From: Parcubacteria group bacterium
Lineage (GTDB): Bacteria > Patescibacteriota > Minisyncoccia > Moranbacterales > GCA-2747515
Length of the DNA stretch: 64,000 bases
Direction: 5' to 3'
NCBI GenBank assembly: GCA_041660065.1
Contig: JBAZXC010000001.1
Location: 392,535-456,534 of the forward strand
A program made the translations under genes and the position numbers. The notes beneath the pieces are model-generated. The model had not been told where the DNA came from and ran no database searches. It saw nothing but the letters and a program-made list of their open reading frames with translations. Of the stretch, positions 1-58,774 are shown piece after piece (position 1 is the stretch's first letter; every line of letters starts with the position of its first letter).

Positions 1-226
1 TGCCCGTAAAATCGGTTTCGGTAAAATTGCATCCATTGAATACGCAATTGGAAATCTCAAAAGACTCCCGTTTTTCCCCGGACCAATCTTCTTTTTGGAT
101 CGTTTGATCTTCAATGATGTTTTGCATATACGTAATTCGATTATATCATGACGCAAGATCTAACTTCAATAATACAAATAAAAGAGGTAGATTTCTCTAC
201 CTCCAGTAAGAATAATTCCTCCCTTT

Positions 227-511
227 TTACAGAAAACCGCTAGATCTGGCAATCCCAACCAAACCAACAAGAATCCAAAAAGTATTCAGTAAGGCGTAAG
301 CCTTATCCCGCTTCAGAATCGAACACCATGATAATAAAGCCGCATCAGTCGTGTTAAATATCCACACAAACATAAAAGGGCTTTGCGGTCCAAGCCAACT
401 CACTAGTGAAAAACTGAATATGCGCATTGAAACTCCGACCATTTCCAGAGTTTTAATGTTGTTAAGTACAAATGCATTTAATACTTCTACAACATGCCTA
501 AGTCTGCTCAT
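227..511 (-). CDS. hypothetical small membrane protein
   Basis: 94-aa ORF with two hydrophobic segments. No recognisable family. Confidence 0.3.
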   Translation of the reverse strand: MSRLRHVVEVLNAFVLNNIKTLEMVGVSMRIFSFSLVSWLGPQSPFMFVWIFNTTDAALLSWCSILKRDKAYALLNTFWILVGLVGIARSSGFL

Positions 512-841
512 TGTGCCTCCTTTTGTCTGATTTCTATTAAGGTACTTCTTACTATTAGACTAATGTATAAATGCTAACGTGACAAGTTTTGAGTGATAAA
601 AACTCACAACAATAACTCAAAGATCTTACATTGTCAGTAACTTCCACTTAGTGCACAAAAAAGATAATTGCACAAGATATCGCGCAAATATTTATTTCAA
701 TTCATGCCAAATCAAACTAAAAAATAATTATTTATTTGTTCATAATCTATATTTTTTCCAACAATAGTCTTGGCACCGCAAAATTTACAGAACCCACTTT
801 CTTCTAAAATTTGTTTTCCGCAATTTTCACAGAATATATTT

Positions 842-1453
842 TTATGCTAATTGATTACCACAAAATTTACAGAAGTTTCCTTCAAAATTAATTTTTTTTC
901 CACAATTATGACAGAACCTTTTACCCTCAAGAAAATTTTCATCTGTATTTACTGGTTGAATATTATCCTGTTTGTCGGATTTGTTTCTTTTTTTCCTTTC
1001 ATTCTCTATCTTAATTGCTCCATACAGAGGGGCAACAAGTATGAGCCACCAAACTAAAACCATAAAAACTCCTTTTCCATTAAGCGCGATGAGTTGGTAT
1101 CCTTTTTCGATTGTCCATAAAATTATTCCAAGATACATCGCCCATCTGTGCCCCTTATATATAAAAAAGAGAACAGGTATATAAATTATCAAACTATAAA
1201 GAACATCAGCTAGGGGCATAATATCAAAATATCCAAGGATCAGAGATGCTATTATAATTCCCCCAAGAATTAAAGTGGCCTGTCCTCTTTTTGACCTTGT
1301 CATACCTAATTCGTCATACTTTTCTACTTGCATTTTGAATTCTCTCTCTGCTTTTTCACTCGCTTGTTTTTTTTCTTCATCTTTTTCTTCTTGCAACTGT
1401 AATTTAAATGATTTCATAAATAGAGAGTTTATTACAAATAAAAAACAGCCCAA
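842..1453 (-). CDS. membrane protein with C-terminal zinc-ribbon (CxxC-x10-CxxC)
   Basis: 203 aa with several TM helices, a Lys/Glu-rich N-terminus, and a C-terminal CHNCGKKINFEGNFCKFCG zinc ribbon. Start codon is ambiguous. Confidence 0.5.
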   Translation of the reverse strand: MGCFLFVINSLFMKSFKLQLQEEKDEEKKQASEKAEREFKMQVEKYDELGMTRSKRGQATLILGGIIIASLILGYFDIMPLADVLYSLIIYIPVLFFIYKGHRWAMYLGIILWTIEKGYQLIALNGKGVFMVLVWWLILVAPLYGAIKIENERKKRNKSDKQDNIQPVNTDENFLEGKRFCHNCGKKINFEGNFCKFCGNQLA

Positions 1454-1812
1454 AAAAGACTGTCGGCATCAAAAATGTGGTTTTGTGTTTTTCGCAAAAA
1501 CATTGAATTGCAACTTTTTAATATTAATCTATTTTAAAAATAGCACTTAGTTGGGAAAATGCAAGTTTTTTTATTCAAAGAATGAAAATTAGTTCGACTC
1601 AAACCAGACCAAATCAAACTAAAAAATTCCATATGACTATAGCATCCTTTTCACACCATCCCGGTCTAGTACCTCCTTTTAGACAATTTTAAGAGGTTTT
1701 TTGACCTTTTTGGATGAGTATCGATCTTTGTCAAATGAGACAAATGAGACACTGCAATAGTATGAAGTCTCATTCACAAAAATTTGACTTATCAGATTAA
1801 TTGTTACAATAG

Positions 1813-2673
1813 TCACGAAATTCTTTCGTCTAAACGCGAAAATAGATTACTAACCATGATCAGCCTACCAAGTGCCTCATGATGCGGCATTTGCTCCTCA
1901 TCTCCATGACTTAGATTATTACGCCACCAAGTCATCAAACCCATTGTCGTAAGCCTAAAACCCATTTGTTCATTAATTTCCTGAGCTGTTTCAAGATTAT
2001 TAAGCTTAATTTTTGGATCATTCTCATTAAACACATTAGCCATCAGTTTTTGTCCATCCATTTTTTTTAACAAAGATAAGTCCTGCACTGTTTTTTCAAA
2101 TTTCTCTAAAGATTTTCTAACAGCTTCATTTAAATGACCATCCACAAACATTTTCTTGCAATCAGGCAAAAGTGTTGGATGCAGAGGAAACGTATCAAGA
2201 ATTTTTTGTACTGCTATTGGTGGTGGAACGATTTTTGGTCTTTGAGTTGGAAGTTTTAATTCTTTAATTTCTTTTTTTAAATCAACTCCTAGTAGAAACA
2301 ATTGACTTGCAAGCTCAGAGGCTTCTTGTTCCAAAATTGGATTTCCTTCCGAATGTCTCTTTTCAATAGCCCTTGGAAGAATTTCGCGAACAATTAACTT
2401 TAAGGTTCGAGGTTTCTCTTTAATAAGATTCCTTATAAAAACAGAAAATGCTTCCTTCTTATTTACTTTTTTTGGAATATATTCCACAAGCCCTCGTGTT
2501 TTTGCAATCGTCATAAGGGAAAATGAGCTTCTATACCCATCTAACGGAATAAGTCTTCCTAACTGTTCAGCGAGGATGCGTATGTTTTGAATATTCGCAG
2601 CGGATAGCATTTTGAATTTTCGCACTTTATTTTTTTTCGAAACAGTCTTGTGATTGCTTTTTCCTAATTTCAT
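1813..2673 (-). CDS. hypothetical protein with C-terminal Abi_C/TIGR02391-like (HEPN-like Rx4H) region
   Basis: 286 aa. The C-terminal roughly 120 aa carry a WRNNLSHG motif (Rx4H) followed by SNLFSRLDE, resembling the HEPN-type Abi_C/TIGR02391 pattern. 66-bp gap to the upstream 409-aa gene on the same strand. The family assignment is from memory, not a search. Confidence 0.4.
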   Translation of the reverse strand: MKLGKSNHKTVSKKNKVRKFKMLSAANIQNIRILAEQLGRLIPLDGYRSSFSLMTIAKTRGLVEYIPKKVNKKEAFSVFIRNLIKEKPRTLKLIVREILPRAIEKRHSEGNPILEQEASELASQLFLLGVDLKKEIKELKLPTQRPKIVPPPIAVQKILDTFPLHPTLLPDCKKMFVDGHLNEAVRKSLEKFEKTVQDLSLLKKMDGQKLMANVFNENDPKIKLNNLETAQEINEQMGFRLTTMGLMTWWRNNLSHGDEEQMPHHEALGRLIMVSNLFSRLDERIS

Positions 2674-2739
2674 AATTTCTTAAACTATTATATGGTTACA
2701 TAAAATCCCGAGACACCTTAGTGACTCGGGATTTTTTTG

Positions 2740-3969
2740 CTATTTTTTCGCCAACTTCTCCTGCAAGGAATGAATGATCACGGTATTTGCAATATTCTGC
2801 CAAAGCACCTTGCTCTTTCCAGTTTTATTAGGGTTACTATTATATTCCCTAGTATGAGCTTCCAAAACTTGTGAGACTATCTTAGATCCGTGCTTATCAA
2901 GAAATTCCTTCGGATCAATCACCCATACATAACATCCATTCTTCTCTTCCAATAGAAATCGAAGGGCTGCAAAAATCGGCATGGAAAAACCCTTTGATAG
3001 TTTATATCCAACAGTCTTGTTTGAGAATGGAAGCTTCACGGTAACAGGCTTCTTGTTATCTCCCCTTCCACGATATTTTTCAACACCGTTTATACCGCCA
3101 AATTTCTTTACACCAACCTCCTTTGCATAACTCTCAAATTTCGAATAGAGGTGCTCATATGTTTCAAGAATTGAGGGGAGTAGCTTATAAAGTTTTTCAT
3201 ACGTAGGTCTGTTTTTTTTATTCAACCATTTAGTAAAACAGGTAGATATTCCGGTATAAGCAACTGTTGGCTGGCTACTACTATCATACAGATCCTTATT
3301 CAAAGCAGTTAGTAGGGCGAGCAATTCCTCTATGGGAAACATCGCCTCATCGCTATCCAAGTTCTCATTCTCAAAATAAATTACCTTTTGACTATAACCA
3401 CCTAGCGCATCCTTGATAGGTAAAAATTCATTATCAAGATTAACTATAGACTTTTCAGTCACCTGAACACTGGTATTCCTTGCTCTTGCCAATTTGGTAG
3501 CAAACCCCTCAGCACCTTCAACAACAGTAATAAATATAGGAAGATCCTCTAATGATTCATCCTCCATTTTCTTCTTTAGAACCGCGTATGTATGTCCACC
3601 ATCAACTAATCCTCCTTTTGGATTTCCGTCTTCATCCACCCCAAAATCAACCAGGATTTTCTTTTCGTCCCCATCTACATTTGGATAGTAGACTTTTTCA
3701 GCAATCAAGACAAGCCCCCTATTGCAGTCTGTAAAATACTCTGGCTCTTGCTCTAACGTGTCAATCATCTGTCGACAAGGCTTTGCGTTAATATCGGGTT
3801 TTCTAGGATTCGGGGTGGTTGGAAAATTATTAGGTAAGTTTTTAAGCAAAATAAAAAGGAAATGAGTTTTAATAACATCGTTTCCCTCAGGATCGTAATA
3901 GTTTAATTTTCTTCCGATTGTTCTTGCTTGAGAGTAGTTAAACTCCAAGACTTGCTTTGTCTGTGACAT
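2740..3969 (-). CDS. hypothetical protein, AIPR-like / ParB-DGQHR-like putative abortive-infection protein
   Basis: 409 aa. N-terminal region has a GLVDGGHTY motif reminiscent of DGQHR/ParB-like or AIPR nuclease-type motifs. Sits beside the tRNA island. The family call is tentative. Confidence 0.35.
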   Translation of the reverse strand: MSQTKQVLEFNYSQARTIGRKLNYYDPEGNDVIKTHFLFILLKNLPNNFPTTPNPRKPDINAKPCRQMIDTLEQEPEYFTDCNRGLVLIAEKVYYPNVDGDEKKILVDFGVDEDGNPKGGLVDGGHTYAVLKKKMEDESLEDLPIFITVVEGAEGFATKLARARNTSVQVTEKSIVNLDNEFLPIKDALGGYSQKVIYFENENLDSDEAMFPIEELLALLTALNKDLYDSSSQPTVAYTGISTCFTKWLNKKNRPTYEKLYKLLPSILETYEHLYSKFESYAKEVGVKKFGGINGVEKYRGRGDNKKPVTVKLPFSNKTVGYKLSKGFSMPIFAALRFLLEEKNGCYVWVIDPKEFLDKHGSKIVSQVLEAHTREYNSNPNKTGKSKVLWQNIANTVIIHSLQEKLAKK

Positions 3970-4114
3970 AGTTTTGTCATTAAAATTAGTTAATTTTTCG
4001 CTTCGCTGAAAGCAATATTACTTCAGTTAGCTGAACTTGCGGTAAGATTACCTGCAAATCTAATACGAGTATAACAAAAATATTTCAACTTGTCAATATC
4101 TCTTTTCTTTCATC

Positions 4115-4213
4115 TGCACGGGATGTAGGAATCGAACCTACGCCAAAGGTTTTGGAGACCTCTATACTACACCTGTCACTCACGAGTGACGGGTCGGACA
4201 CTATACGAATCAT
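4115..4213 (-). pseudogene. tRNA-Trp pseudo-copy (29-nt hairpin insertion in D-loop, 5' acceptor strand lost)
   Basis: Identical to the intact tRNA-Trp through the anticodon arm (CCA), T-arm and 3' acceptor strand. The D-loop carries the insert acctgtcactcacgagtgacgggtcggac. The 5' acceptor is replaced by aatgatt. Confidence 0.7.
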
Positions 4214-4216
4214 TTG

Positions 4217-4287
4217 CACGGGATGTAGGAATCGAACCTACGCCAAAGGTTTTGGAGACCTCTATACTACCACTATACGAATCCCGC
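4217..4287 (-). tRNA. tRNA-Trp (anticodon CCA)
   Basis: Cloverleaf folded by hand. Acceptor GCGGGAT/ATCCCGT with G1-U72. Anticodon stem GAGGT/ACCTT. Loop CUCCAAA. T-arm GTAGG-TTCGATT-CCTAC. No encoded CCA. Confidence 0.8.
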
Positions 4288-4295
4288 AATTTTTA

Positions 4296-4550
4296 TTATT
4301 TTAAACCCAATCTCTTCATTAAACTCATATATACCGAACCGCTTGTTTTTAATCCCTTCTCCCTATTACGTGCCAACTGTTCATTTTCAAATGCTTCATA
4401 ATAGATCAGTTCCGGTTTTTTGTTCTTTGTGGTGTTATTTTGTCCTGCACAATGTTGCGCGAGACGTTTACGCAAATCAGCTGTATATCCAATGTAAAAC
4501 TCCTTATCGCCACACTTTTGCAATTTTAGCACATACACATAGTACATCAC
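4296..4550 (-). CDS. GIY-YIG domain nuclease (small YhbQ/UPF0213-like)
   Basis: 84 aa. YVYVLKL...FYIGYTADLRKRLAQH is a canonical GIY-YIG motif. Confidence 0.8.
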   Translation of the reverse strand: MMYYVYVLKLQKCGDKEFYIGYTADLRKRLAQHCAGQNNTTKNKKPELIYYEAFENEQLARNREKGLKTSGSVYMSLMKRLGLK

Positions 4551-4568
4551 AATTTGAATTTATTTCAC

Positions 4569-4629
4569 AGGAGACCTCTATTGCACCTGTCACTCACGAG
4601 TGACGGGTCGGACACTATACGAATCCCGC
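4569..4629 (-). pseudogene. tRNA-Trp 5' fragment (acceptor + D-arm with the same 29-nt insertion, truncated after anticodon-stem 5' strand)
   Basis: Reverse complement reads GCGGGATTCGTATAGTG, then the same insert, then CAATAGAGGTCTCC, then diverges. Confidence 0.65.
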
Positions 4630-4731
4630 CTGCCTAAATCTTGTAAAAAAATTGTAGCCGTCACGCCATTCTCACCATTCATCTTTATACCAAAATGTCT
4701 TTACATACTTGCAGTACAAGATTTTGGCAGG
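4629..4731. repeat. extended palindromic element with CCTGCC...GGCAGG terminal inverted repeats (17 of 17 with 1 mismatch)
   Basis: cctgcctaaatcttgta ... tacaagattttggcagg. Abuts the 5' end of the tRNA-Trp fragment. Confidence 0.5.
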
Positions 4732-4785
4732 CACGCCGTATCCACATTCTATTGTAACGATTATTTCATTTTTTGTCACATTCTG

Positions 4786-4858
4786 AGCCCACGAGCAGAA
4801 TTGAACTGCTGGCCTTTTCCTTACCATGGAAATGCTCTACCATCTGAGCTACGTGGGC
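4786..4858 (-). tRNA. tRNA-Thr (anticodon GGT)
   Basis: GCCCACG acceptor. Anticodon stem TTTCC/GGAAA with loop AUGGUAA. T-loop TTCAATT. Confidence 0.8.
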
Positions 4859-4982
4859 ACAATCCTTTACAGATAAAGCCGACACTTTACAGTAATCGGC
4901 CGCATCCGCTATGTCTTCCTCTGTATTTCTTTCGTTTGGGTTTACACTGAGCAAGTCCCTACTTGTGGGACGAGTCGACGTG

Positions 4983-5065
4983 TGGGCCGGGAGGGATTTG
5001 AACCCCCGAAGACCGAAGTCGCCTGATTTACAGTCAGGTGCATTTGACCACTCTGCCACCGACCC
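4983..5065 (-). tRNA. tRNA-Tyr (anticodon GTA), long variable arm
   Basis: Acceptor GGGTCGG/CCGGCCC. Anticodon stem CCTGA/TCAGG with loop CUGUAAA. Long variable arm. T-loop TTCAAAT. Confidence 0.8.
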
Positions 5066-5142
5066 AGTTCAATATCAAATATAAAAAATGAAGAATCAAA
5101 AATATTTTTGATATTTGATTTTTCATCTTTAATTTAATACTG

Positions 5143-5215
5143 AGCCACTTGTCAGACTCGAACTGACGACCTGCGGTTTACAAAACCGATGCTCTACCAA
5201 TTGAGCTAAAGTGGC
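5143..5215 (-). tRNA. tRNA-Thr (anticodon TGT)
   Basis: Acceptor GCCACTT/AAGTGGC. Anticodon loop UUUGUAA. T-loop TTCGAGT. Confidence 0.8.
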
Positions 5216-5447
5216 ATACTTTTTTATAATGTCCTCGTTAAACGTTTTCTCAAATCTTTCTTTTCATCACTACTTTTGAGAAACTTTTCTCTATTCATTG
5301 TTTCTTCTTTGTGTAGATATGCCTCATAACAAATTAATACCACTAGATTCCCGTTTTCACGGGAATGACACTAAAAAATCAACATTAAACAAACCCTTTC
5401 CGTATCAGTATACACTGACAGAAAAAAATAATCAACACGTCTCAAGC

Positions 5448-29939: not shown

Positions 29940-30040
29940 TCGTCATCGCGAGTGAAACGAAGCGATCTTTTTGCAATGTGAAATTCTCGTCGGAGATTGC
30001 CTGCCTACCGGCAGGCAGGCTTCGTTCCTCGCAATGACAG
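29940..30040. repeat. roughly 100-bp imperfect palindrome centred on the GC-rich hairpin CCTGCCTACCGGCAGGCAGG
   Basis: Core at 30000-30019. Outer arms tcgtcatcgcgagtgaaacgaagc and gcttcgttcctcgcaatgacag. Reverse complement of the cores at 31840 and 31931. Confidence 0.6.
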
Positions 30041-31839: not shown

Positions 31840-31859
31840 CCTGCCTGCCGGTAGGCAAG
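31840..31859. repeat. GC-rich hairpin repeat CCTGCCTGCCGGTAGGCARG (copy)
   Basis: Same family as 30000-30019 in opposite orientation. One mismatch. Confidence 0.6.
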
Positions 31860-31930
31860 GTTGAAAATTATACTTGTGTGACCCCACGGAGAAGCTCACA
31901 CGGTGACACATCACCTTTTAAAAACCCACG

Positions 31931-31950
31931 CCTGCCTGCCGGTAGGCAGG
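31931..31950. repeat. GC-rich hairpin repeat CCTGCCTGCCGGTAGGCAGG (copy)
   Basis: Exact reverse complement of 30000-30019. Confidence 0.6.
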
Positions 31951-58508: not shown

Positions 58509-58551
58509 CTTGAACATCGGACATCGTCATTACCCGCCGCGACGGGCGCGC
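58509..58551 (-). pseudogene. tRNA-Ile-derived 3' fragment
   Basis: Matches the 3' part of the pseudo-tRNA-Ile (GCGCGCCCGYCGCGGCGGGTAATGACGAKGTCCGAKGTTCAAG) with substitutions. Confidence 0.5.
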
Positions 58552-58579
58552 TTTGGTTAGCGATTTATTTAAAAATGTG

Positions 58580-58653
58580 TGGGCGATCGAGGACTTGAAC
58601 CTCGGACCTCGTCATTATCAGTGACGCGCTCTAACCACCTGAGCTAATCGCCC
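58580..58653 (-). tRNA. tRNA-Ile (anticodon GAT)
   Basis: GGGCGAT acceptor. Anticodon stem CGTCA/TGACG with loop CUGAUAA. T-loop TTCAAGT. Confidence 0.8.
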
Positions 58654-58680
58654 TTATACTTTTATTCTTTTCTTTCTCCA

Positions 58681-58774
58681 GCGATCGAGGACTTGAACCT
58701 CGGACCTCGTCATTACCCGCCGCGGCGGGCGCGCTCCCTGCCTACCGGCAGGTAACCACCTGAGCTAATCGCCC
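58681..58774 (-). pseudogene. tRNA-Ile pseudo-copy with 16-nt GC palindrome in D-loop and 14-nt GC palindrome replacing anticodon 5' stem/loop
   Basis: GGGCGATTAGCTCAGGTGGTTA, then the insert [CCTGCCGGTAGGCAGG], then GAGCG, then [CGCCCGCCGCGGCGGG], then TAATGACG..., with the 3' acceptor truncated. Confidence 0.65.

Follow-up and report, generated by a model that had tools for sequence, protein, structure and literature searches.

A GIY-YIG nuclease gene nested among tRNA-Trp copies in a Parcubacteria genome: a probable hairpin-marked cassette of tRNA genes in the Candidate Phyla Radiation

How does a nuclease gene come to lie between the pieces of a broken tRNA gene, with a working copy of the same tRNA standing next to it? 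The question is raised by a locus on the minus strand of a 64,000-nucleotide stretch (64 kb) of a Parcubacteria group bacterium genome (assembly GCA_041660065.1, contig JBAZXC010000001.1, positions 392,535 to 456,534). This whole stretch is called the window here, and coordinates are those of the window unless another locus is named. Within 4115..4731 the minus strand reads, in order, a 5' fragment of tRNA-Trp (A), an open reading frame (ORF) for a small GIY-YIG nuclease, an intact tRNA-Trp (B) and a 5'-truncated tRNA-Trp copy (C). A preliminary description of the stretch had given this order with its coordinates, and our analysis bears it out. Comparison with related loci in ultra-small bacteria of the Candidate Phyla Radiation (CPR) leads us to consider it probable that the locus is a selfish nuclease cassette nested in a tRNA gene, made of a TCGCGA-centred hairpin and a minimal GIY-YIG ORF and kept together with an intact tRNA. 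Such an element is apparently undescribed, and it appears to live inside tRNA genes without destroying them.

Fragment A (4569..4629) is composed of tRNA positions 1-17 (4629..4613, 17/17 identical to B), a 28-nt hairpin insert and a degenerate copy of positions 19-35 (4584..4569, GCAATAGAGGTCTCC) with a 2-nt deletion and substitutions. Its homology to the tRNA stops within the anticodon, after C35. The insert (4585..4612, TCCGACCCGTCACTCGTGAGTGACAGGT) lies in the D-loop, between G18 and G19. The ORF (4296..4547) encodes 83 amino acids plus a stop codon; ATG at 4547 is the likelier start, since it opens the conserved MYYVY, and GTG at 4550 is an alternative. B, the intact tRNA-Trp(CCA) (4216..4287), begins 8 nt past the ORF stop and was called by ARAGORN. 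A 3-nt spacer separates it from C (4116..4211), which lacks at least the first 4 nt of the tRNA and consists of positions 5-17 (4211..4199), a second copy of the insert (4171..4198, 28/28 identical to the first) and positions 18-72 (4170..4116, 55/55 identical to B). The start of C is ambiguous, at position 5 or 8, because the trailer RATGA past the tRNA 3' end is also duplicated. The Rfam tRNA model scored B at 62 bits, in line with the one high-scoring copy that the preliminary description had expected of a tRNA scan; for C it detected the 3' part only (32.6 bits), and neither broken copy had a full-length match.

The insert itself, described beforehand as an identical 29-nt hairpin in the D-loop of both broken copies, is indeed the same in both and indeed a hairpin, but only 28 nt of it are unambiguous, the 29th being a base of the tRNA. 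Its predicted fold is a stem of 10 bp that includes one C.A mismatch and is closed by a 4-nt CGUG loop (-11.3 kcal/mol as RNA, z -1.4). A search of the 64 kb with up to 3 mismatches allowed returned exactly these two occurrences, versus 0 expected in shuffles. A and C overlap over positions 5-35 plus the insert, about 56 nt, as had been estimated.

The arrangement recurs in many CPR lineages. A scan of one genome per species with the ORF-family alignment gave 80 loci (numbered with the prefix L below), and in 35 of them a tRNA-Trp(CCA) stands beside the ORF on the same strand, beginning no more than 15 nt from the end of the protein match in 22. The hosts of these 35 Trp-linked loci are Parcubacteria, Moraniibacteriota, Kuenen-, Magasanik-, Uhr-, Woese-, Levy- and Gottesmanbacteria, Microgenomates and Saccharibacteria, with the proviso that some taxon labels of metagenome-assembled genomes may be unreliable. 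For most of them a tRNA-Trp profile, together with short-word BLAST, detected partial tRNA-Trp copies on the flanks of the ORF. Some loci read A-ORF-B (layout type 1, for example L003, L007 and L009), others read B-ORF-C, with the intact tRNA ending directly at the ATG (layout type 2; L002, L005, L024), and the full A-ORF-B-C of the window is shared by L001, L010 and L012. The broken copy of most loci has its palindrome, of about 26 nt, inserted into the anticodon loop between T33 and CTCCAAAAC. In the sub-lineage of the window (L006, L011, L015) the palindrome is in the D-loop and the tRNA homology still stops at about position 33-35. Related ORF clades show a like arrangement at tRNA-Glu, Ser, Ala and Tyr, the Glu, Ala and Ser loci having their own partial copies, hairpins or flanking repeats, and ORF clades match tRNA identity (Trp, Glu, Ser/Asp and Tyr). 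The preliminary description had held that the same arrangement in relatives, with conserved and expressed copies, would speak for an ancestral functional locus. The arrangement is in fact widespread, but it is variable, chimeric and decaying, and the copies are not conserved functional tRNAs. An assembly artefact was rejected, as the pattern is seen in dozens of independent assemblies. Outside the CPR, homologous ORFs were also noticed in L025 (Porticoccus) and L035 (Paracoccus), at 3001..3240 of these loci and about 0.8-1 kb downstream of tRNA-Ile and tRNA-Ala; they probably sit inside the 23S rRNA gene as an intervening sequence.

What is the hairpin? Of the 35 Trp-linked loci, 34 have, in a loop of a broken copy, a GC-rich palindrome whose centre is almost always TCGCGA. 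It usually stands 9-38 nt ahead of the ATG or, in layout type 2, about 31 nt past the stop codon. Its arms differ by nuclease subclade, beginning ACCNGTC in the clade of the window, ACCCCGTCG in Saccharibacteria and CCCGCC or CCCAGCC in the Microgenomates-type clades. An alignment (A2) of 37 members of the window's hairpin family, the insert of fragment A among them, has 93.9% of its cells paired and compensatory (both-side) changes in 6 of 11 pairs. The covariation score is 0.418, against 0.150 in shuffles (0/500 reached the observed value) and at most 0.12 in slid-partner controls. Judged by this covariation, the dyad symmetry of the hairpin is shown to be under selection. By folding energy neither A, C nor the hairpin alone stands out (z -0.2 to -1.4), so the argument for the hairpin is one of covariation and not of energy. 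The 4-nt centre varies as CNNG in the window's family, and its symmetry is not kept, which is compatible with a hairpin loop or with a non-specific spacer between two half-sites. Where the insertion is in the anticodon loop, short repeats resembling target duplications (TCT/GTCT or CC/TCC) flank it, as a staggered cut would leave them. The TCGCGA family is almost confined, in the sampled CPR DNA of about 400 kb, to within about 100 nt of the ORF clade, and it was not found at the cassette-free locus L081 described below. Eleven matches to the hairpin pattern turned up in a scan of viral contigs. None has a GIY-YIG gene or tRNA-Trp fragments for context, and at the free positions most lack palindromic symmetry, so phage carriage is not indicated by these contigs. 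No Rfam family covers the hairpin; the nearby FtrB match (24 bits versus a cutoff of 66, E=0.33) is a chance hit to the hairpin of a decayed cassette, also described below. The palindrome, it had first been suggested, could be a transposition scar or the original target. It is neither a random scar nor merely that target: with its TCGCGA centre and compensatory arm changes, and as far as these alignments reach, the hairpin is a conserved palindrome family that accompanies the nuclease clade across CPR lineages, and it is probably the partner of the nuclease.

Other hairpins mark tRNA pieces elsewhere in the window. On the minus strand at 58509..58774 an intact tRNA-Ile(gat) (58579..58653) lies between pseudo-copies, without an ORF. 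The upstream pseudo-copy contains positions 1-22, a hairpin in the D-loop (cctgccGGTAggcagg), a hairpin that replaces 7 nt including the anticodon (cccgccGCggcggg) and positions 35-71, and the downstream one is a 3' piece with a similar hairpin. A second hairpin family (GCCTGCCTACCGGCAGGCAGGC) occurs at 31840..31950, where two copies bracket a 16-nt copy of a tRNA-Glu 3' end (31878..31893), about 180 nt downstream of tRNA-Glu(ctc). Further copies of this family were found near 30000 (29999..30020) and in the tRNA-Ile pseudo-copy (58735..58754). At L037 (Uhrbacteria) a hairpin (GCCACGTCGCTCGCGAGCGACGTGGC) is joined to a tRNA-Trp 3' end, with copies at 2877..2902, 3666..3681, 4527..4542 and 4680..4695 of that locus. 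Three of the four, each with the tRNA-3'-end-like ccctgcca in front of it, are spread over about 2 kb between other genes, in a pattern that looks like dispersal of units made of a tRNA end and a hairpin; the left flank of the copy at 4680 differs.

The ORF product matches the Pfam GIY-YIG family (PF01541) with E=1.2e-12 and 48.3 bits (cutoff 22.6) and, in a homology search, is identical to a database protein (P0001) from a 469-kb contig of a Parcubacteria group bacterium. Among 25 homologues Y5, Y18, H32 and E63 are invariant and R28 is conserved in at least 90%. Aligned by eye to the I-TevI and UvrC motifs, these residues would be the GIY tyrosine (Y5), the YIG tyrosine (Y18), the catalytic arginine (R28), the histidine (H32) and the metal-binding glutamate (E63). 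A profile search of the PDB matched only UPF0213 proteins, BH0048 (1zg2, 2.6e-10) and EF2693 (1ywl, 8.8e-7). The AlphaFold2 model (mean predicted local distance difference test, pLDDT, 87.7) has the topology E-E-H-E-H-H, a three-stranded sheet with helices, and Foldseek probabilities obtained with it were 1.0 for 1zg2 (UPF0213), 0.99 for several Slx1 structures, about 0.3 for the UvrC N-terminal domain and 0.12 for I-TevI. The modelled protein is thus a minimal stand-alone nuclease of the prokaryotic Slx1/UPF0213 family, with an intact predicted GIY-YIG fold and intact motif residues. Pfam and NCBIfam detect no domain beyond the GIY-YIG core in the 83 amino acids, and so no DNA-binding module. 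NCBIfam returned nothing above cutoff; the group I intron endonuclease model TIGR01453 scored 18 bits versus 56, so by that model the ORF is not an intron-type endonuclease. The ORF family comprises 2790 representative clusters at E<=1e-3 and 87 at E<=1e-10. In three database proteins an N-terminal extension, SHPSVATDGCLQN, is the translated hairpin plus anticodon loop. P0003, P0007, P0020 and many other homologues carry extensions of about 20-45 amino acids upstream of the true MYYVY start, and these are gene-calling artefacts in which hairpin and anticodon loop are translated.

Does the cassette move? At several loci the tRNA pieces are chimeras or come from foreign alleles. L074 has a related ORF at tRNA-Glu(ttc). 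Here GGCCCGT, the 5' acceptor strand of A, pairs with ACGGGCT, the 3' strand of C, neither is compatible with the intact B in between (GCCGCCA/TGGCGGT), and one double hairpin within the anticodon is common to A and C. This locus looks like a resident gene split by the insertion of an ORF and a tRNA. At L004 two cassettes stand in series, and fragment A2, before the second, is a tRNA-Trp allele unlike the resident A1, B and C. C of L001 resembles the allele of L010, which belongs to another lineage, and A of L003 is 85% identical to B. Chimeric flanks suggestive of co-conversion are therefore present in L074, in A2 of L004 and in C of L001, and are not seen in the window.

Traces of invasion, degeneration and loss were found as well. 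ORF1 of L004 is pseudogenised (GTG start, TAG at codon 10), the ORF of L011 has lost its start codon, and L006 and L015 have tandem A units with remnants of about 50 nt between them that end like the ORF 3' end. The window holds a second, decayed cassette on the minus strand (5224..5370), consisting of a hairpin (attcccg-tgaaaa-cgggaat, 5366..5347) and only the C-terminal half of a GIY-YIG ORF (hmmsearch with the A1 profile, E=1.6e-7). The ORF homology runs from about 5343 and ends in LICYEAYLHKEETMNREKFLKSSDEKKDLRKRLTRTL, and the stop codon lies 8 nt before tRNA-Thr(tgt) (5215..5142).

Sites without the cassette were sought with the tRNA-Trp sequence of the window, a metagenome scan that is not biased by the ORF and that gave two contigs. 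One of them (L081) has a tRNA-Trp identical to B but lacks a C copy and a hairpin, and its upstream sequence, as far as the available 67 nt reach, contains no ORF. The other (L082) shares with the window the gene order rpmE-rpsB-tsf-TPR-Thr-Tyr-Thr-Trp (TPR, tetratricopeptide repeat), but upstream of its tRNA-Trp stands rpmG in place of the ORF, its tRNA-Thr(tgt) is free of any remnant, and downstream of tRNA-Trp it has a GIY-YIG ORF from another clade; the comparison is a distant one, protein identity to the window being only about 50-60%. The ORF is thus present in the window and absent from the syntenic position in L082, as the empty-site comparison proposed in the preliminary description had anticipated. 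The chimeric alleles, the pseudogenised ORFs, the ORF-less syntenic site of L082 and the cassette-free L081 together favour a mobile and decaying cassette that would bring or preserve a working tRNA. With L074, L004, L001, the decaying ORFs, L082 and L081, one half of the interpretation first offered, an ORF and a working tRNA nested in a split tRNA gene, finds support; as for the other half, possible homing, the protein is of the Slx1/UPF0213 type and not a homing endonuclease of the I-TevI type. L082 has two more features of its own, at 4620..5095 and 4150..4310 of that contig. An 18-nt leader, ccgaagctttagcgYagg, precedes its tRNA-Trp and occurs again after the other-clade ORF, this time in front of a collapsed tRNA end (ataccgtgc), and the tRNA-Tyr 3' end is present in a further copy between tRNA-Tyr and tRNA-Thr(ggt).

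A mechanism can be proposed for such a cassette. It would occupy the tRNA-Trp gene, always leaving or bringing one intact copy (B), and the ORF, packed against tRNA-Trp, would be transcribed with it from the tRNA promoter. The interrupted pieces, A from the 5' part and C from the 3' part, would remain as hairpin-marked pseudo-tRNA fragments, overlapping because the hairpin-bearing segment is duplicated at both junctions, and the constant company of one complete tRNA copy would let the cassette survive. The nuclease may break DNA in or beside tRNA-Trp, the constant breakpoint being the anticodon loop at 33/34, and repair with the tRNA-derived flanks as homology arms may copy hairpin, ORF and tRNA into the target, the spread proceeding by break-induced or transformation-mediated recombination. 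Recombination through tRNA-derived arms would explain the overlapping fragments, the constant breakpoint in the anticodon loop and the chimeric alleles. The hairpin would then be the cognate structure of the nuclease. It may serve as its structural substrate or as a binding or operator site, or it may disrupt the cut site in dead copies, or stabilise or regulate the ORF mRNA. The role of substrate or binding site is favoured by the fold, which is Slx1-like and comes without a DNA-binding domain, and by the hairpin's conserved centre with its compensatory arms. A more far-reaching version is put forward only tentatively, as we judge it rather improbable: that the locus represents a new class of mobile element, in which a minimal, structure-specific Slx1-like nuclease acts on its own TCGCGA palindrome, as a cruciform or single-stranded hairpin, without having to recognise a long DNA sequence, and tRNA flanks are homology arms portable between CPR tRNA genes. 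This would be a first role for the prokaryotic Slx1/UPF0213 family.

Several points weigh against a mobile cassette. In the window itself A, B and C are the same allele, with no sign of foreign origin, and a single unambiguous series of events yielding its A-ORF-B-C could not be reconstructed. B is the same as the unoccupied allele of L081, so the functional copy has no visible immunity if the tRNA sequence is the target. The lack of a DNA-binding domain makes classical sequence-specific homing doubtful, an 83-amino-acid catalytic core is unlikely to read a long homing site, and the match to I-TevI is poor (Foldseek probability 0.12). Hairpin-marked tRNA-Ile and tRNA-Glu pieces without an ORF mean that hairpin insertion may be separable from the nuclease. 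ORF subclades roughly track host taxonomy (Saccharibacteria, Microgenomates, Parcubacteria/Moranbacteria), which is also compatible with long vertical residence. The 80 loci were collected through the ORF, so their counts do not give the fraction of tRNA-Trp genes that are occupied, and both mobility and cleavage are deduced from comparative anatomy.

Vertical residence deserves the most careful weighing. By this explanation an Slx1-like housekeeping gene is co-transcribed with tRNA-Trp, the extra pieces are decaying tandem duplications, and nothing is mobile. Prokaryotic Slx1-family proteins have been proposed to be ancient and mostly vertically inherited (PMC1564403), which fits with the adjacency of ORF and tRNA-Trp in many CPR lineages, the rough agreement of ORF subclades with taxonomy, the constant co-orientation and tight packing of ORF and tRNA, and the single allele of the three window copies. 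It does not account for the chimeric or foreign-allele fragments of L074, L004, L001 and L003, for ORFs that are pseudogenised or deleted, for L082, with no ORF at the site and another clade on the opposite side of the tRNA, or for the identical tRNA without a cassette in L081; in addition, tRNAs for Glu, Ser, Ala and Tyr show the same architecture, with ORF clades to match. We consider it unlikely. Less likely again is that the hairpins are autonomous palindromic insertions, like miniature inverted-repeat transposable elements, in the loops of redundant tRNA copies and that the ORF is a mere neighbour, an idea partly compatible with the nuclease cassette. The short target-like duplications, the tandem hairpins of L013, L014, L016 and L024, the varying hairpin positions (D-loop, anticodon loop, 3' end) and the other hairpin families on the tRNA-Ile and tRNA-Glu pseudo-pieces of the window, which have no ORF, all agree with this idea. 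Yet the TCGCGA family hardly occurs in the sampled CPR DNA beyond about 100 nt from the ORF clade and has two copies in the 64-kb window, its arms change along with the nuclease subclade, and no other candidate transposase is nearby.

tRNA genes are classical integration sites, and the defence-like AIPR and Hypoth_Ymh genes lie directly downstream of C, so a genomic island integrated site-specifically into tRNA-Trp, with C as its displaced attachment-site remnant, was also considered. No integrase is found in 1..4100, C adjoins B across the 3-nt spacer instead of standing at the far side of the island, the window has no further tRNA-Trp fragment, and the A/B/C anatomy is also found at loci with unrelated downstream genes; this origin seems to us very improbable. 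The hairpin-bearing copies might finally be functional themselves, as intron-containing or split tRNA genes whose RNA would lose the insert or have its halves joined. At several loci the insert falls precisely within a loop and the tRNA on either side of it is unbroken, and the palindromic hairpins of A and C could pair with each other. Still, valid intron-containing tRNAs, an outcome that the preliminary description had envisaged, were not found: the pseudo-copies are not of this kind because A has no 3' half and C no 5' acceptor strand. With everything past position 35 missing from A and the first 4-7 nt from C, removal of the insert restores no complete cloverleaf. Some hairpins replace the anticodon (the tRNA-Ile copy; L017 and L018), B always stands intact beside the broken copies, nothing resembling a bulge-helix-bulge splicing context is seen, and bacteria are not known to have a tRNA-splicing endonuclease. 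We give this last possibility hardly any credence.

How does the nuclease cassette compare with known systems? Our full-text literature searches brought up no account of a GIY-YIG gene that is nested in a tRNA gene of a bacterium. Among characterised systems SegB of T-even phages comes closest, a free-standing GIY-YIG endonuclease of the T4/T6 tRNA cluster whose breaks drive recombination of tRNA-containing segments (PMC13096335; review PMC2988022). In both cases the GIY-YIG gene lies outside introns and among tRNA genes, and for SegB breaks and recombination move or amplify the nuclease gene with neighbouring tRNAs. Seg proteins are larger and have DNA-binding regions, whereas the window protein is an 83-amino-acid catalytic core with an Slx1-like fold, and its element lies in a duplicated tRNA gene of a bacterial chromosome and has a conserved palindromic hairpin. 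GIY-YIG ORFs of mitochondria, such as that of Allomyces atp6, reportedly insert with a replacement copy of the gene terminus; the duplicated or foreign segment is said to keep the gene functional, with the displaced resident segment left as a downstream pseudo-fragment, much as proposed for the window. These are, however, protein-coding organelle genes with larger ORFs, and the GC-rich hairpins of fungal mitochondrial DNA are reportedly separate entities.

The 'fractured genes' described in PMC2677866 are host genes split by a free-standing homing endonuclease gene and rescued by split inteins. They share with the window a nuclease gene between the halves of a host gene and a compensating mechanism, but the rescue is protein trans-splicing there and a complete extra tRNA copy here. 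In the CPR themselves, rRNA genes host nuclease-encoding insertions, mostly LAGLIDADG/group I, with GIY-YIG in non-intron ones (PMC11270868). The host group and the invasion of structured-RNA genes by nuclease-encoding insertions are thus the same; tRNA genes are unmentioned in PMC11270868, and in the window the tRNA is kept by duplication and not by splicing or excision.

The imperfect palindromes of IS200/IS605 elements, of REP (repetitive extragenic palindromic) sequences with RAYT proteins and of integron attC sites are also kept in structure more than in arm sequence and stand beside a small nuclease-type gene. These systems differ in using HUH/Y1 or tyrosine recombinases that religate DNA, for which there is no gene at the locus. 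To our knowledge a GIY-YIG hydrolase cannot perform strand transfer alone. An IS200/IS605-type transposon was accordingly rejected, the only ORF between the hairpins being the GIY-YIG gene, with no Y1/HUH TnpA.

The prokaryotic Slx1 family was defined by Dunin-Horkawicz et al., with its function given as unknown, in a 2006 survey that asked whether such small GIY-YIG members are molecular parasites (PMC1564403). Like the UPF0213/Slx1 proteins, BH0048 and EF2693 among them, the window protein is a stand-alone GIY-YIG core in the range of about 80-100 amino acids with no auxiliary domain; unlike it, these proteins are not linked in that survey to tRNA genes or palindromes, save one fusion to a TrmH-like tRNA methyltransferase (PMC1564403). 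Small stand-alone GIY-YIG proteins of this kind are widespread and have been without an assigned role since their structures were solved. The locus and its relatives may offer a concrete and testable answer, a nuclease paired with a conserved hairpin and a defined target, tRNA genes, and they would represent an unusual answer to the difficulty that the invaded gene is essential, which is to bring or keep a full copy of it. The arrangement also explains pseudo-tRNA clutter in CPR genomes and N-terminal artefacts of gene callers, and such tandem, near-identical tRNA pieces can mislead repeat or tRNA annotation.

The surroundings of the locus contain a few other features. No terminator-like site was found in 3900..5400, including the part between C and a promoter-like site at 4751..4779 on the minus strand (GTGACA-17-TACAAT, 10/12 consensus matches), about 120 nt upstream of A. 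By this consensus match the site is a candidate promoter for an A-ORF-B-C transcript. Farther upstream, the 123-nt spacer between tRNA-Tyr and tRNA-Thr(ggt) (4859..4981, minus strand) contains the hairpins gtcccacaagtagggac and gccgattactgtaaagtgtcggc, with no tRNA or GIY-YIG remnant detected in it. Downstream of C, at 1813..3969 on the minus strand, are the AIPR-family gene (Pfam, 8e-25) and the Hypoth_Ymh gene (1e-22), preceded by the best promoter match of the region (4068..4096, TTGACA-17-TATACT). This stretch may be a variable island beside the tRNA cluster.

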